Shown here piece after piece: positions 4,338-55,881 of a stretch of 64,000 nt of DNA; position 1 is the stretch's first letter; every line of letters starts with the position of its first letter. The stretch lies in NCBI RefSeq assembly GCF_003334385.1, contig NZ_QOWN01000001.1; one strand, given 5' to 3'. The position numbers were made by a program, and so were the translations under genes. The stretch comes from Escherichia coli (lineage in GTDB: Bacteria > Pseudomonadota > Gammaproteobacteria > Enterobacterales > Enterobacteriaceae). The notes below the pieces were generated by a model. The model had not been told where the DNA came from. It saw only the letters and a program-made list of their open reading frames with translations, and made no database searches.

Positions 4338-13021
<8,684 letters not shown>

Positions 13022-47096: not shown

Positions 47097-47165
47097 CTCT
47101 AGATCTCTTTTTTGCCTGCAAGCCCGGGTAATGCGCACACAAGTTCTGCTTAATCGATTGAAAAA

Positions 47166-47186
47166 ACATCTTTTTTTTAAAGATGT
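47166..47186. promoter_or_regulatory. Perfect palindrome in the yidP-glv divergent promoter region (candidate operator)
   Basis: acatcttt-ttttt-aaagatgt: 8-bp arms with a 5-bp spacer. Confidence 0.5.
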
Positions 47187-47391
47187 GTTCGATGCTGTGT
47201 ACCTGTGCTCACAGAGGTCTACTTTTTCGCGAAAACGTAGATCTCTACCGCCCAACGAAAAGCATGAAAGCGATCACGAATCCCATTGGGTCGTCATGTT
47301 CTGCCGATCGCATCTTCCTATCCTCGCTCCAGGCCTGCCGCATAACCAATCAGGCTTCCTACTTACAGAATTGAGAAAAGAGGATGTGGAA

Positions 47392-50712
<3,321 letters not shown>

Positions 50713-50878: not shown

Positions 50879-52594
50879 ATGAATTCGTTACAAATCTTGA
50901 GTTTTGTCGGTTTTACGCTGCTGGTGGCGGTGATCACCTGGTGGAAGGTCCGCAAAACAGATACCGGATCGCAACAAGGCTATTTTCTTGCCGGACGTTC
51001 ACTAAAAGCGCCGGTTATTGCCGCTTCGTTAATGCTAACCAACCTTTCCACGGAACAACTGGTCGGCCTTTCCGGGCAGGCCTACAAAAGCGGCATGTCG
51101 GTGATGGGCTGGGAAGTGACTTCAGCGGTGACGCTGATCTTCCTCGCGCTAATCTTTTTACCGCGCTATCTGAAGCGCGGCATTGCCACCATCCCCGATT
51201 TTCTGGAGGAACGTTATGATAAAACGACGCGTATTATCATCGACTTCTGCTTCCTAATTGCCACCGGCGTCTGCTTTCTGCCGATTGTTCTCTACTCCGG
51301 CGCGTTGGCGCTCAACAGCCTGTTTCACGTCGGGGAATCGCTACAGATTTCTCACGGTGCGGCTATCTGGCTACTGGTAATTTTGCTTGGTCTGGCGGGA
51401 ATTTTGTATGCGGTGATCGGCGGACTGCGCGCAATGGCAGTGGCGGACTCCATCAACGGTATTGGGCTGGTTATCGGCGGGTTGATGGTGCCGGTATTTG
51501 GCCTGATCGCGATGGGCAAGGGCAGCTTTATGCAGGGCATTGAGCAACTCACCACCGTTCACGCCGAGAAATTAAACTCAATCGGTGGCCCGACCGATCC
51601 CTTGCCGATTGGCGCGGCATTTACCGGTTTGATTCTGGTGAACACCTTTTACTGGTGTACAAATCAGGGCATCGTGCAACGCACGCTGGCGTCAAAAAGC
51701 CTGGCGGAAGGGCAAAAGGGGGCGCTGTTAACGGCGGTGCTGAAAATGCTCGACCCGCTGGTACTGGTGCTGCCAGGGTTGATTGCGTTTCATCTGTATC
51801 AGGATTTACCGAAAGCCGACATGGCCTACCCGACGCTGGTCAATAACGTTCTGCCAGTGCCAATGGTGGGTTTCTTCGGCGCGGTGTTATTTGGTGCGGT
51901 GATCAGTACCTTCAACGGCTTTCTGAATAGCGCCAGTACGTTATTCAGTATGGGTATTTACCGTCGCATCATTAACCAGAATGCCGAGCCGCAGCAGCTG
52001 GTCACCGTCGGGCGCAAATTTGGTTTCTTTATCGCTATCGTTTCGGTGCTGGTCGCGCCGTGGATCGCCAACGCGCCGCAGGGGCTGTATAGCTGGATGA
52101 AACAGCTCAACGGCATTTACAACGTGCCGCTGGTTACCATCATCATTATGGGCTTTTTCTTCCCGCGCATCCCGGCGCTGGCGGCAAAAGTAGCGATGGG
52201 GATTGGCATAATCAGCTACATCACCATCAACTATCTGGTGAAGTTCGACTTCCATTTCCTCTATGTGCTGGCCTGTACGTTCTGCATCAACGTGGTCGTG
52301 ATGCTGGTGATCGGTTTTATCAAACCGCGCGCCACGCCGTTCACCTTCAAAGATGCGTTTGCGGTGGACATGAAACCGTGGAAAAACGTCAAGATCGCGT
52401 CAATTGGCATCCTGTTCGCGATGATTGGCGTCTATGCCGGGCTGGCTGAATTCGGCGGCTACGGTACGCGCTGGTTAGCGATGATCAGTTATTTCATTGC
52501 CGCCGTAGTGATTGTCTACCTGATTTTTGACAGCTGGCGGCATCGTCACGACCCAGCCGTAACCTTTACTCCCGACGGGAAGGATAGCCTATGA
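50879..52594 (+). CDS. yidK: Sodium:solute symporter (SSS family)
   Basis: 571-aa polytopic membrane ORF. Confidence 0.88.
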   Translation: MNSLQILSFVGFTLLVAVITWWKVRKTDTGSQQGYFLAGRSLKAPVIAASLMLTNLSTEQLVGLSGQAYKSGMSVMGWEVTSAVTLIFLALIFLPRYLKRGIATIPDFLEERYDKTTRIIIDFCFLIATGVCFLPIVLYSGALALNSLFHVGESLQISHGAAIWLLVILLGLAGILYAVIGGLRAMAVADSINGIGLVIGGLMVPVFGLIAMGKGSFMQGIEQLTTVHAEKLNSIGGPTDPLPIGAAFTGLILVNTFYWCTNQGIVQRTLASKSLAEGQKGALLTAVLKMLDPLVLVLPGLIAFHLYQDLPKADMAYPTLVNNVLPVPMVGFFGAVLFGAVISTFNGFLNSASTLFSMGIYRRIINQNAEPQQLVTVGRKFGFFIAIVSVLVAPWIANAPQGLYSWMKQLNGIYNVPLVTIIIMGFFFPRIPALAAKVAMGIGIISYITINYLVKFDFHFLYVLACTFCINVVVMLVIGFIKPRATPFTFKDAFAVDMKPWKNVKIASIGILFAMIGVYAGLAEFGGYGTRWLAMISYFIAAVVIVYLIFDSWRHRHDPAVTFTPDGKDSL

Positions 52595-54084
52595 AACGCC
52601 CCAATTTTCTGTTCGTCATGACCGATACCCAGGCCACCAATATGGTCGGTTGCTATAGCGGTAAACCGCTGAATACGCAAAATATTGATAGTCTGGCGGC
52701 GGAAGGTATTCGCTTTAATTCCGCCTACACCTGTTCACCGGTTTGTACGCCTGCACGGGCCGGACTATTTACCGGTATCTACGCTAACCAGTCCGGCCCG
52801 TGGACCAACAACGTCGCGCCAGGCAAAAACATCTCCACTATGGGGCGCTACTTTAAGGATGCCGGCTATCACACCTGTTACATCGGCAAATGGCATCTCG
52901 ACGGTCATGACTATTTCGGCACTGGCGAGTGTCCGCCGGAGTGGGACGCTGATTACTGGTTCGATGGGGCGAACTATCTTAGCGAACTGACGGAAAAAGA
53001 GATTAGCCTGTGGCGCAATGGCCTAAACAGCGTCGAAGATTTACAGGCGAACCATATCGACGAAACCTTCACCTGGGCGCATCGTATCAGCAATCGGGCG
53101 GTGGATTTTCTGCAACAGCCTGCGCGCGCAGACGAGCCTTTCCTGATGGTGGTTTCGTATGATGAGCCGCATCACCCGTTCACCTGTCCGGTGGAGTATT
53201 TAGAGAAATACGCTGATTTTTACTACGAGCTGGGCGAGAAAGCACAGGATGACCTGGCTAACAAACCGGAACATCACCGCTTATGGGCGCAGGCGATGCC
53301 ATCGCCAGTCGGTGATGACGGGCTTTATCACCATCCGCTCTATTTTGCCTGTAATGACTTTGTTGATGACCAAATCGGACGGGTCATCAATGCCTTAACG
53401 CCAGAGCAACGTGAAAATACGTGGGTTATTTATACCTCCGATCACGGCGAAATGATGGGCGCACATAAGCTGATCAGTAAAGGGGCGGCGATGTATGACG
53501 ACATCACCCGCATTCCGCTGATCATCCGTTCGCCGCAAGGGGAGCGGCGACAGGTCGATACGCCAGTCAGTCATATCGATTTACTGCCGACAATGATGGC
53601 GCTGGCAGATATTGAAAAACCAGAGATTCTGCCGGGGGAAAATATCCTTGCCGTGAAAGAGCCACGCGGCGTGATGGTGGAATTTAACCGCTACGAGATT
53701 GAGCATGACAGCTTTGGCGGTTTTATTCCGGTGCGTTGCTGGGTGACGGATGACTTTAAACTGGTACTCAACCTCTTCACCAGTGATGAACTTTACGATC
53801 GCCGTAATGACCCAAATGAAATGCATAACCTGATCGATGATATCCGTTTTGCAGACGTTCGCAGCAAAATGCATGACGCCTTATTGGATTACATGGACAA
53901 AATTCGCGATCCGTTCCGCAGTTACCAATGGAGTCTGCGTCCGTGGCGTAAAGATGCACGGCCGCGCTGGATGGGGGCGTTTCGTCCACGTCCACAAGAT
54001 GGCTATTCGCCAGTTGTACGCGACTATGACACCGGCCTACCGACACAAGGGGTGAAGGTGGAGGAGAAAAAACAGAAGTTCTGA
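52591..54084 (+). CDS. yidJ: Cys-type sulfatase
   Basis: 497 aa; sulfatase signature C-x-P-x-R present as CSPVCTPARAGLFTG near the N-terminus; start overlaps the yidK stop by 4 nt. Confidence 0.9.
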   Translation: MKRPNFLFVMTDTQATNMVGCYSGKPLNTQNIDSLAAEGIRFNSAYTCSPVCTPARAGLFTGIYANQSGPWTNNVAPGKNISTMGRYFKDAGYHTCYIGKWHLDGHDYFGTGECPPEWDADYWFDGANYLSELTEKEISLWRNGLNSVEDLQANHIDETFTWAHRISNRAVDFLQQPARADEPFLMVVSYDEPHHPFTCPVEYLEKYADFYYELGEKAQDDLANKPEHHRLWAQAMPSPVGDDGLYHHPLYFACNDFVDDQIGRVINALTPEQRENTWVIYTSDHGEMMGAHKLISKGAAMYDDITRIPLIIRSPQGERRQVDTPVSHIDLLPTMMALADIEKPEILPGENILAVKEPRGVMVEFNRYEIEHDSFGGFIPVRCWVTDDFKLVLNLFTSDELYDRRNDPNEMHNLIDDIRFADVRSKMHDALLDYMDKIRDPFRSYQWSLRPWRKDARPRWMGAFRPRPQDGYSPVVRDYDTGLPTQGVKVEEKKQKF

Positions 54085-54130
54085 CGATAATGCCCGCTGA
54101 TGATCACCCGGCGGGCATTATTCAGGCTGC

Positions 54131-54580
54131 TTAAACCAGTGAACCGCCGGTCAGGAAGGAAAAGATAAGGAATATCAGCAAAATGCTGCACACGATGCCG
54201 ATACCAAAAAGCAAGGTATGGAAAGCCAGCGTCCCGCCGCCAAAAACCAGCGCGCCGCGAATGCCCCAGCGATTTTCCTTACGCATACCGCCAATAAATG
54301 CGCAAAGTAGCGCAGCAATGGCCAGTGCGATACCGCTTTGATTGAGGATTTTATCGACATCTACGTCCTCTTTTTTCTCCACGGTGGTAATTTTTTCGCC
54401 TTTTATTCCGGCGAGAAGACCTCTTTTAATTTCAGCCGTTTTGTCCGCCACGATGCTTTCAAACGTTGGCGGTGGTGCGGAGAAAGGGCCGAATGAAAAG
54501 TGGATAATCCCCATCATTAAAGCGATGGCACCGAACAGCATGCCCAATGAACTGATTTTATTTTGAGCTATGATACCCAT
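54131..54580 (-). CDS. yidI: Inner membrane protein YidI
   Basis: 149 aa from ATG at 54580 (MGIIAQNKISSLGMLFGAIALMMG...), preceded by RBS ggaggtcag. Confidence 0.8.
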   Translation of the reverse strand: MGIIAQNKISSLGMLFGAIALMMGIIHFSFGPFSAPPPTFESIVADKTAEIKRGLLAGIKGEKITTVEKKEDVDVDKILNQSGIALAIAALLCAFIGGMRKENRWGIRGALVFGGGTLAFHTLLFGIGIVCSILLIFLIFSFLTGGSLV

Positions 54581-54687
54581 CTGACCTCCTTGTAGCGGAT
54601 GGCAAAAGCATATCAGGAAACGGGCGGACGAAATTCTTAAAAAAACCGCTAAAGGTAGAGCGTTAGTGAAATTGCAAAGGAGCAACA

Positions 54688-55035
54688 ATGAAAATTTCCC
54701 GCCTCGGAGAAGCGCCTGATTACCGCTTCTCGCTGGCTAATGAGCGTACTTTTCTGGCGTGGATCCGTACTGCACTAGGATTTCTGGCGGCGGGGGTTGG
54801 GCTTGATCAACTTGCGCCAGATTTCGCCACGCCCGTCATTCGCGAACTGCTGGCGTTGTTGTTGTGTCTGTTTTCCGGCGGGTTAGCGATGTATGGCTAC
54901 TTGCGCTGGTTACGCAATGAAAAAGCGATGCGTCTGAAAGAGGACCTGCCCTACACCAACAGCTTATTAATCATTAGCTTAATATTGATGGTCGTGGCGG
55001 TGATCGTTATGGGACTGGTGTTGTATGCCGGATAG
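54688..55035 (+). CDS. yidH: Small inner membrane protein (DUF202-like)
   Basis: 115 aa, two hydrophobic helices. Confidence 0.82.
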   Translation: MKISRLGEAPDYRFSLANERTFLAWIRTALGFLAAGVGLDQLAPDFATPVIRELLALLLCLFSGGLAMYGYLRWLRNEKAMRLKEDLPYTNSLLIISLILMVVAVIVMGLVLYAG

Positions 55036-55387
55036 CCGCAAAGCCAGACGCATTGCCGACCCAGGACTGCAGCCGGAGCGCACATCACTGGCGTGGTTTC
55101 GTACCATGCTGGGCTACGGCGCGTTGATGGCGTTGGCTATCAAACACAACTGGCACCAGGCGGGCATGTTATTCTGGATTTCGATTGGCATTCTCGCCAT
55201 CGTGGCGCTGATCCTCTGGCACTACACCCGTAATCGCAATTTAATGGATGTCACGAATAGCGATTTTTCCCAATTTCACGTAGTCCGTGACAAATTTTTG
55301 ATCTCCCTCGCGGTGTTATCTCTCGCAATACTGTTTGCTGTAACGCATATACATCAACTTATCGTATTTATTGAGAGAGTCGCATGA
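55025..55387 (+). CDS. yidG: Small inner membrane protein (DUF202-like)
   Basis: 120 aa; overlaps yidH by 11 nt and yidF by 4 nt. Confidence 0.82.
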   Translation: MPDSRKARRIADPGLQPERTSLAWFRTMLGYGALMALAIKHNWHQAGMLFWISIGILAIVALILWHYTRNRNLMDVTNSDFSQFHVVRDKFLISLAVLSLAILFAVTHIHQLIVFIERVA

Positions 55388-55881
55388 CAGGAAGTCAGGT
55401 CATTGATGCTGAAGAGGACAGGCATAAACTGGTTGTAGAGTACAAGGATGCTCTGCAACCTGCCGATTTTTATCACAATTTCAAACAGCGGGGCATCCGC
55501 TCCGTACAGCTCATTCCCTATCTTGAATTTGATGACCGGGGCGATCTGACGGCCGCTTCGGTGACAGCAGAGCTGTGGGGGAAATTTTTAATTGCCCTGT
55601 TCGATTGTTGGGTGCGGGCAGATATCAGTCGTATCTCGATTGAGCTTTTTGACGCCACCTTACAAAAATGGTGTGGCAGCGAAAACCCGCAACCGCGCTG
55701 TGACTGCCAGGCGTGCGACTGGCATCGCCTGTGCCCGCACGCTCGGCAGGAGACGCCAGACAGCGTGCTTTGTGCGGGCTATCAGGCGTTTTATTCTTAC
55801 TCCGCACCGCATATGCGGGTGATGCGTGATCTGATAAAGCAGCATCGTTCTCCCATGGAGCTGATGACGATGCTGCGGTGA
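55384..55881 (+). CDS. yidF: Cys-rich protein resembling the C-terminal domain of anaerobic sulfatase-maturating enzymes
   Basis: 165 aa; Cys cluster CDCQACDWHRLCPH...C; no N-terminal CxxxCxxC radical-SAM motif. Confidence 0.8.
   Translation: MTGSQVIDAEEDRHKLVVEYKDALQPADFYHNFKQRGIRSVQLIPYLEFDDRGDLTAASVTAELWGKFLIALFDCWVRADISRISIELFDATLQKWCGSENPQPRCDCQACDWHRLCPHARQETPDSVLCAGYQAFYSYSAPHMRVMRDLIKQHRSPMELMTMLR

Follow-up and report, generated by a model that had tools for sequence, protein, structure and literature searches.

In Escherichia coli, yidF encodes a protein of 165 residues and lies close to the sulfatase gene yidJ. We analyzed this locus in a 64,000-nucleotide stretch of E. coli DNA (RefSeq assembly GCF_003334385.1, contig NZ_QOWN01000001.1), referred to here as the window, and compared it with related loci in a scan that took one genome per species (77 loci). 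The comparison indicates that yidF is derived, by deletions in frame, from the gene of a sulfatase-maturating enzyme of the anaerobic type (anSME), and that the shortened product is maintained by purifying selection. The 3291-base segment that holds both yidJ and yidF (52591-55881) is of the E. coli K-12 type, matches MG1655 and is present in 5421 of 5426 complete E. coli genomes. A first-pass annotation of the window, made from its letters alone, had described a sulfatase, a symporter (yidK), an AraC regulator (yidL) and an overlapping yidHGF group with two DUF202 proteins, and the coordinates, Pfam matches and RefSeq annotation all agree with that description (Table 1).

Table 1. Genes and sequence features of the yidL-yidF region, in window coordinates.
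Feature	Coordinates	Strand	Description	Basis
yidL	49819..50712	-	AraC-family regulator, divergent from yidK	RefSeq annotation; Pfam HTH_18, HTH_AraC, AraC_binding
yidK	50879..52594	+	Solute:sodium symporter; stop overlaps yidJ start	ORF (open reading frame) list, RefSeq annotation
yidJ	52591..54084	+	Cys-type sulfatase, 497 aa	Pfam Sulfatase PF00884, E 1.3e-72, and SGSH_C
YidJ C52-T-P-A-R56 codons	52744..52758	+	Formylglycine target motif	Translation
yidI	54131..54580	-	Small membrane-protein gene between yidJ and yidH	Annotation
yidH	54688..55035	+	DUF202 membrane protein, first gene of yidHGF	Pfam DUF202, E 6.3e-19
yidG	55025..55387	+	Second DUF202 membrane protein	Pfam DUF202, E 3e-11
yidF	55384..55881	+	165-aa in-frame-deleted anSME derivative	Profile, alignment, AlphaFold2 (AF2) model, Foldseek
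YidF codons 1-9, MTGSQVIDA (ancestral MTGCQVMAK)	55384..55410	+	Retained N-terminus; 142-aa deletion junction at 55410/55411	
YidF residues 99-107	55678..55704	+	Scar of the 59-aa deletion	Alignment with full-length orthologues
YidF C108-x2-C111-x5-C117 ... C130	55705..55773	+	Predicted auxiliary cluster II ligand set	HMMER alignment to anSMEcpe
YidF residues 129-165, LCAGYQAFYSYSAPHMRVMRDLIKQHRSPMELMTMLR	55768..55878	+	Most strongly conserved segment	

The genes of the yidHGF group are tightly packed. The frames of yidH and yidG overlap by 11 nt and those of yidG and yidF by 4 nt (ATGA), a Shine-Dalgarno-like GAGAGAG run lies 5′ of the yidF ATG, and emrD, which is convergent with yidF, begins 7 nt past the yidF stop. 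Both YidH and YidG belong to the DUF202 family by its Pfam profile (PF02656), YidH is 79-99% identical between genera, and the yidK-equivalent genes of related loci match Pfam SSF. In every enterobacterial locus scanned, yidH, yidG and a yidF homologue are contiguous. The yidI gene is restricted to Escherichia, Salmonella and some Citrobacter. Because yidJ and yidH are only 12-100 nt apart in genera where yidI is missing (about 12 nt in Trabulsiella), the ancestral operon probably had the order yidK-yidJ-yidH-yidG-yidF; from the same gene orders, yidI looks like a lineage-specific insertion that splits this operon, not an ancestral member. A scan of the yidI-yidH interval for the sigma-70 consensus found no match and carries no information either way.

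YidJ has both features of a Cys-type sulfatase, the sulfatase domain and the C-x-P-x-R signature. The Cys-type motif CTPAR, already noted in the first pass, lies within PVCTPARAGLFTG with its Cys at residue 52 (nt 52744-52746), and CTPARAGLFTG is identical in 28 of 28 YidJ orthologues. The NCBIfam models for arylsulfatase and choline-sulfatase match YidJ at E-values of 1e-59 to 1e-64, under their cutoffs. Judged by eye, no signal peptide is evident at the N-terminus (MKRPNFLFVMTD). We estimated the ratio of nonsynonymous to synonymous substitution rates (dN/dS) from pairs by the Nei-Gojobori method (NG86), and the values for yidJ, 0.03-0.06, indicate strong purifying selection. In one E. coli strain (H71), an IS1 element lies inside yidJ.

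The first-pass annotation proposed that a sulfatase-maturating enzyme survives as a remnant in YidF, which is 165 aa long and lacks the CxxxCxxC motif, and the translation bears out both the length and the missing motif. Against the NCBIfam model for anaerobic sulfatase maturases, TIGR03942, YidF scores 75.7 bits (E 3.5e-21) in two stretches. In a phmmer search of the PDB, the only significant match was anSMEcpe, the C. perfringens enzyme (E 9.5e-5), again in two collinear blocks: YidF residues 28-96 align with anSMEcpe 176-247 and residues 102-152 with anSMEcpe 311-370, while anSMEcpe 248-310 is unmatched. An AlphaFold2 model of YidF, built from a 52-sequence alignment, predicts a compact fold and reached a mean predicted local distance difference test score (pLDDT) of 83 and a predicted template-modeling score (pTM) of 0.81, with low confidence only at residues 1-10 and 101-129. 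When this model was compared with the PDB by Foldseek, the top eight matches were all anSMEcpe chains (4K36-4K39; probability 1.00, E 2.8e-6), with a TM-score of 0.63 normalised to the query, so that the retained region, as modeled, has the fold of a solved anSME. A Pfam search of YidF gave nothing significant, as a remnant this fragmented escapes the Radical_SAM and SPASM profiles. Profile, pairwise and fold comparisons thus all confirm the proposed likeness to anSME families, and the similarity is far above chance.

Whether a complete maturase occupies the same site in other enterobacteria had been put forward as a check, and it does. More than 25 genomes from seven genera carry a gene of about 370 aa that begins at the yidG stop, as yidF does, and scores above the anSME cutoff. 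The genera are Citrobacter, Kluyvera (several), Trabulsiella, Atlantibacter, Pluralibacter, Kosakonia and some Enterobacter; within Citrobacter, the full-length gene was found in C. werkmanii, C. braakii, C. amalonaticus, C. sedlakii and C. youngae ATCC 29220. The encoded proteins start with MTGCQVMAKPASSRCNLxCRYCFY, in which the CNLxCRYC motif begins at residue 15, and have a complete SPASM domain. Orthologues such as those of C. werkmanii (L022, 7530-8642) and Trabulsiella guamensis (L040) share with YidF the locus, a start that overlaps the stop of yidG, and the first residues (MTGC/SQV); they are 47-50% identical to YidF over shared columns, with a near-identical C-terminal tail. On TIGR03942, whose curated cutoff is 349.45 bits, they score 469-484, and the E. 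coli anSMEs AslB and YdeM score 518 and 505, whereas YidF fails the cutoff. Because the full-length genes at this site pass it, YidF is, by position and alignment, the orthologue of a genuine third anSME. We show on these comparative grounds that yidF descends from a third enterobacterial anSME, a paralogue of AslB and YdeM, both of which are about 29% identical to YidF over shared columns. The remnant proposed in the first pass is therefore supported by positional orthologues that have both the CNLxCRYC motif and the SPASM domain.

Alignment to the full-length C. werkmanii protein, AslB and YdeM gave a map of what was lost. YidF residues 10-26 align with C. werkmanii residues 152-168, and the first deletion covers residues 10-151 (142 aa); it removed the radical-SAM motif CX3CX2C (C15, C19 and C22), the WQGGEPTL (GGE) motif of the SAM site and the first two-thirds of the barrel. 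The second deletion (59 aa) lies in the SPASM domain, where the distance from W-C-G to C108 is 9 residues in E. coli versus 68 in the full-length proteins. It took with it C246, C252 and C267, whose spacing is exactly that of anSMEcpe C255, C261 and C276, along with the SPASM hairpin and the catalytic-base region. The third is a loss of four residues, HGDC, after C117 (junction 55734/55735), and this tetrapeptide contained the equivalent of anSMEcpe C330. Since 370 - 142 - 59 - 4 = 165, all three deletions are in frame. The full-length orthologues retain all three segments.

What remains is the original start codon (overlapping the stop of yidG), the barrel's last beta/alpha units, the ligands of one auxiliary cluster and the C-terminal helix. 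In anSMEcpe, auxiliary cluster I is bound by C255, C261, C276 and C330, and auxiliary cluster II by C317, C320, C326 and C348 (PMC5715301). None of the four auxiliary cluster I ligands is left in YidF. The four predicted auxiliary cluster II ligands are all present; they lie in and after CDCQACDWHRLCPH (residues 106-119), and C108, C111, C117 and C130 align with the four anSMEcpe cysteines. C108, C111 and C130 are invariant in the 52 sequences, and C117 is kept in the reduced forms shown, bar one Citrobacter group. The cysteine cluster of YidF had been likened to the auxiliary-cluster domain of anSMEs, and this holds for the auxiliary cluster II half but not for the whole domain, from which the auxiliary cluster I cysteines are deleted. 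The helices of the conserved C-terminal segment (residues 130-152 and 159-164) are predicted at pLDDT >90. A reading of yidF as a split gene whose lost parts had moved elsewhere was ruled out: in a search of the 64-kb window in any frame, nothing resembling the lost N-terminal half or the SPASM segment was found at E <0.1, so we consider these segments deleted rather than displaced.

Set beside the anSMEs (anSMEcpe, AslB and YdeM), YidF shares homology and fold over the retained parts, the auxiliary cluster II set CX2CX5C...C, the C-terminal C-x-G-Y-x-x-F motif with its helix and a Cys-type sulfatase gene as genomic neighbor, and its positional orthologues are full anSMEs. It differs in length (165 aa versus 370-410 aa), in having neither the radical-SAM cluster nor the SAM site nor auxiliary cluster I, and in its score against the family model. 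Failing three defining features, YidF should on its sequence be filed as a derived, presumably non-catalytic variant outside the anSME family. Twitch radical SAM enzymes offer a partial parallel, as their SPASM domain is naturally shortened to a single auxiliary-cluster site (PMC5715301). Twitch domains, however, retain the core together with the side of auxiliary cluster I and lose CX2CX5CX3C, and YidF is the reverse, with the auxiliary cluster II side kept.

Shortened genes of this type are widespread. Intact reduced forms of 165-178 aa occur in about ten genera; the hosts are Escherichia, the Citrobacter freundii complex, Salmonella arizonae and diarizonae, Superficieibacter, Klebsiella and Raoultella, and further Leclercia, Silvania, one Kluyvera and one Enterobacter. 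Common to all reduced forms are the start at the yidG stop, a barrel remnant of about 85 residues, the CxxC...C...C set and the C-terminal tail. The radical-SAM motif CX3CX2C is missing from E. coli YidF and from every reduced form except one intermediate copy (L020), which keeps CHLECRHC ahead of its deletion. Escherichia, Salmonella and the reduced forms of Citrobacter share one N-terminal junction; other junctions are found in Klebsiella/Raoultella, K. indica, Leclercia/Silvania, Superficieibacter, Kluyvera sichuanensis and C. amalonaticus ku-bf3, and a metagenomic reduced form of 213 aa likewise has a different one. As aligned, the distinct junctions argue for several truncation events or for several steps. 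Other copies are intermediate or broken: small SPASM deletions or a broken motif mark L037 and L038, L041 is also intermediate or broken, a single frameshift interrupts the full-length copies L030 and L047, and L018, L066 and L076 are disrupted by frameshifts. In a neighbor-joining tree the reduced forms sit on long basal branches, but its topology is dominated by rate differences, and rate acceleration is a possible cause. Orthologues uniformly of about 165 aa with a distinct function would, in the first-pass view, have spoken against a decayed or truncated maturase; the reduced forms are indeed uniformly 165-178 aa, which does not fit a dying gene, and a distinct function is suggested by selection only.

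Selection on the reduced forms was estimated within clades that share one reduction. In these pairs NG86, a crude estimator for which dS is saturated between genera, gave dN/dS values of 0.10-0.34, with Fisher p-values from 1e-3 to 1e-22. E. coli K-12 compared with Escherichia sp. E1V33 gave 0.12 (p 1.7e-18), S. arizonae with S. diarizonae 0.10 (p 2e-11), and the reduced Citrobacter forms, Superficieibacter and Silvania gave 0.14 (p 1e-22), 0.19 (p 2e-15) and 0.29 (p 9e-6). Because the clades compared already share the reduction, this divergence accrued after truncation. The last 37 codons are the most constrained, with dN/dS of 0.02-0.09 in most same-reduction clades. Their dS is no lower than that of the other codons, so it is the protein rather than the DNA that is constrained. 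Full-length orthologues compared in close pairs had lower values than the reduced forms, 0.03-0.14; YidH gave 0.00-0.13 (most pairs 0.01-0.07), and most YidG pairs gave 0.05-0.2. We conclude from these codon comparisons that the values show reduced YidF to be under purifying selection and not in neutral decay. The overall reading from the first pass therefore keeps its first half, an origin from a maturase, and loses its second, that the gene is decayed.

The alternative, that yidF is a pseudogene in slow neutral decay whose open frame and similarity are mere leftovers, deserves a fuller weighing, as several observations fit it. Every catalytic motif is lost, Pfam is silent on the protein, the deletion boundaries vary by genus, and the intermediate, broken and frameshifted copies listed above are what decay would leave. 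A further set of findings weighs against the account that we favor below. Over the same columns, the reduced forms diverge at about double the rate of their full-length counterparts (at 85-90% identity of YidH plus YidG, reduced forms are 54% identical versus 74% for full-length), and because of this rate difference the constraint on them is, by this measure, relaxed. The cysteine-rich stretch is the fastest-evolving and least confidently modeled part of the protein (dN/dS 0.2-0.55, pLDDT 52-63), and in one Citrobacter group C117 is replaced by Tyr. Frameshifted yidF genes are found in the E. albertii type strain and in Leclercia NCTC13032, disrupted alleles occur rarely within E. coli, and the limits of NG86 noted above belong on the same side. 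Neutral decay, however, has to contend with dN/dS values well below 1 that accrued after truncation and with a C-terminal segment held still at normal dS. It must also accommodate a frame that stays open in about ten genera despite saturated dS, when the alternative coding-strand frames of yidF hold 10 stops each, and a gene present near full length, at at least 95% identity, in 5421 of 5426 complete E. coli genomes. Polarity cannot explain this retention, because yidF is the last gene of the operon. A broken frame or a dN/dS near 1, the marks of a pseudogene, do not characterize yidF in about ten genera or in the E. coli genomes sampled, and we consider neutral decay unlikely.

Two other explanations keep YidF tied to YidJ. 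Database names imply that YidF still works as the YidJ maturase, and both its homology to anSMEs and its closeness to a Cys-type sulfatase gene under strong purifying selection would suit that role. We find it scarcely credible for a protein that has lost CX3CX2C, GGE, about two-thirds of the barrel, auxiliary cluster I and the catalytic-base segment, and that scores 75.7 bits where its orthologues, AslB and YdeM reach 469-518. Lacking the CX3CX2C cluster and the SAM site, YidF should generate no 5′-deoxyadenosyl radical and would not mature YidJ; we infer that it is unable to cleave SAM or to convert Cys52 to formylglycine. Maturation of YidJ, which is strongly constrained, would then have to come from AslB, from YdeM or from E. 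coli's oxygen-dependent system. YidF might instead be a non-catalytic factor directed at YidJ, for instance one that binds the unfolded sulfatase motif or escorts it to another maturase, or a regulator of YidJ, and not a partner of YidH and YidG. The ancestral enzyme binds the sulfatase motif peptide, and yidJ and reduced yidF occur together, with yidK and yidL, in Escherichia, S. arizonae and Superficieibacter. Most reduced forms, however, are found where yidJKL is missing (most Citrobacter, including the C. freundii complex, and Klebsiella, Raoultella, Leclercia, Silvania and S. diarizonae). Within E. coli, yidJ is present in 5132 of 5426 genomes, and about 290 complete genomes hold yidF without yidJ. 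The substrate-binding barrel and the SPASM hairpin are, moreover, largely deleted, and we judge a YidJ-directed role improbable.

The same distribution ties yidF to its immediate neighbors. Because many genomes retain yidHGF without yidJKL, yidH-yidG-yidF is, in terms of gene order, an invariant unit in which yidF is tied more closely to yidH and yidG than to yidJ; in Kosakonia even the full-length gene occurs without an adjacent yidJ. An ordinary homologue search for YidH gave close enterobacterial relatives only, and distant relatives (41-54% identity) came from a search of representative sequences. In five of eight informative distant contexts, from unrelated bacteria with GC contents of 35-54%, YidH-like DUF202 genes lie near an anSME gene, a cytoplasmic-type sulfatase gene or both. 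An importer, either SSF or a phosphotransferase system (PTS), recurs in these contexts, and DUF202 genes stand before or after the anSME gene. One locus (L081, 4749-5436) reads AraC, SSF, sulfatase, DUF202, DUF202; a second, from an organism with 35% GC (L082, 2-1208), reads anSME, DUF202, DUF202; and a third (L084, 2487-6982) reads PTS, sulfatase, GntR, DUF202, DUF202 and a 430-aa anSME. A locus with sulfatase, GH16 and GH127 genes (L085, 1-10360) has a DUF202 gene with an anSME nearby, and in L087-89 (L087, 603-5384) the order is SSF, sulfatase, anSME, DUF202, with stop and start overlapping. Five of eight is far above expectation for gene families this sparse, but the linkage is not universal, as DUF202 genes are missing from the Bacteroidales anSME loci. 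Pairs of DUF202 genes are also found with neither a sulfatase nor an anSME, in menaquinone, electron transfer flavoprotein (ETF) and MurQ/PTS loci, and the linkage may reflect a shared pathway rather than physical partnership; both points count against YidF as a partner of the DUF202 proteins. In L084, the 430-aa anSME (5690-6982) ends in a SEC-C-type Cys-rich motif, PCPCGSGKKYKKCCGG, an extension missing in AslB, YdeM and the YidF orthologues.

Taken as a whole, the evidence makes it probable, in our view, that YidF is a reduced anSME kept by selection as a non-catalytic, likely Fe-S-binding partner of YidH and YidG. The ancestral operon probably encoded an importer, a cytoplasmic Cys-type sulfatase, two DUF202 membrane proteins and, last, the maturase. 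In the Escherichia lineage the maturase gene lost its three segments in frame, and catalysis would have gone with them. The remainder would be a small subunit without catalytic activity that probably still binds one [4Fe-4S] cluster, and it most likely acts with YidH and YidG through the surface on which the ancestral enzyme bore auxiliary cluster II and the C-terminal helix. Auxiliary cluster II of anSMEcpe is surface-proximal and a proposed electron exit (PMC5715301), and for this reason its face is a plausible docking surface. The role as a YidH/YidG partner, suggested by selection and synteny only, is the least certain part of this account. We further speculate, with considerable doubt, that the core of about 165 aa is a self-standing module of auxiliary cluster II and C-terminal helix that docks on YidH and YidG, and that this DUF202 subfamily is an unrecognised part of cytoplasmic sulfatase/anSME systems. 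Were this so, the DUF202 pair might be a membrane-side outlet for the auxiliary cluster II electron or an exit route for sulfate, and truncated YidF would have been kept since YidH and YidG need it even where there is no sulfatase to mature.

The RefSeq product name of yidF is 'radical SAM protein' although the radical-SAM cluster motif is missing, and the name is misleading. An older name in the EcoCyc/EcoGene style is 'putative Cys-type oxidative YidJ-maturating enzyme'. The kinship with maturases is thus already implicit in database names. In the literature searched, no paper linked yidF to sulfatases; matches for yidJ were uninformative, a search for DUF202 mostly matched DUF2023 and similar names, and one match to 'yidF' was set aside as a typo for YdiF. 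Within that literature we did not find described the full-length orthologues at the same site, the anatomy of the three deletions, the purifying selection on the reduced form, the association that is closer with DUF202 than with the sulfatase or the wider DUF202-anSME-sulfatase neighborhood. Correcting the annotation is relevant because, in work by Benjdia et al. in 2007, mutants of aslB and ydeM reportedly pointed to an unidentified maturation system; yidF should not count as a third maturase in work on sulfatase maturation in E. coli. The locus offers a natural series of full-length, intermediate and minimal forms, in which an enzyme has repeatedly been reduced in frame to one core under selection. 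As a case of domain salvage, yidF is also an experiment of nature that asks which portion of a SPASM enzyme is able to exist by itself, and the recurring DUF202-anSME-sulfatase neighborhood gives the widespread DUF202 family, whose function is unknown, a first lead to its function that can be tested. We therefore see yidF as an instance of enzyme reduction under selection and an annotation to be corrected, not as a new kind of system. Membership of the locus in a defense system was considered and dropped, as a PADLOC search gave no match for YidF, YidG, YidH, YidI or YidJ.

Several smaller observations concern the gene and its surroundings. The mRNA of yidF is among the partners of GcvB in RIL-seq (RNA interaction by ligation and sequencing) data, a weak hint, from which we take yidF to be transcribed. 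In Citrobacter, Klebsiella and Silvania, genes read from their N-termini as dsdA, dsdX and dsdC lie directly downstream of yidF in convergent orientation (L008, 8544-12377; L033, 4582-8413; L024, 8496-12330; L034, 8483-12274). Overexpression of YidF is listed in a table of one study as boosting D-serine resistance (PMC12363166), which is likewise a weak hint, and its coincidence with the dsd-like genes may be just that. Compared with the MG1655 record, the window has four differences in 13.3 kb (55605, 48496, 51505 and 59918). The one at 55605 lies within yidF, where T in place of G gives Asp74 instead of Glu74; Asp is the residue of most other genera at this position. The yidF sequence of the window has an exact match in no complete E. 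coli genome, the best being 99.8%. Upstream of yidL (47131-49822) are genes for a PTS IIB/IIC component and a 6-phospho-alpha-glucosidase-like protein of the glv type, both of which are pseudogenes in RefSeq (one with an internal stop, one with a frameshift). Intact versions of these glv-type genes stand directly upstream of yidH in genera without yidJKL.

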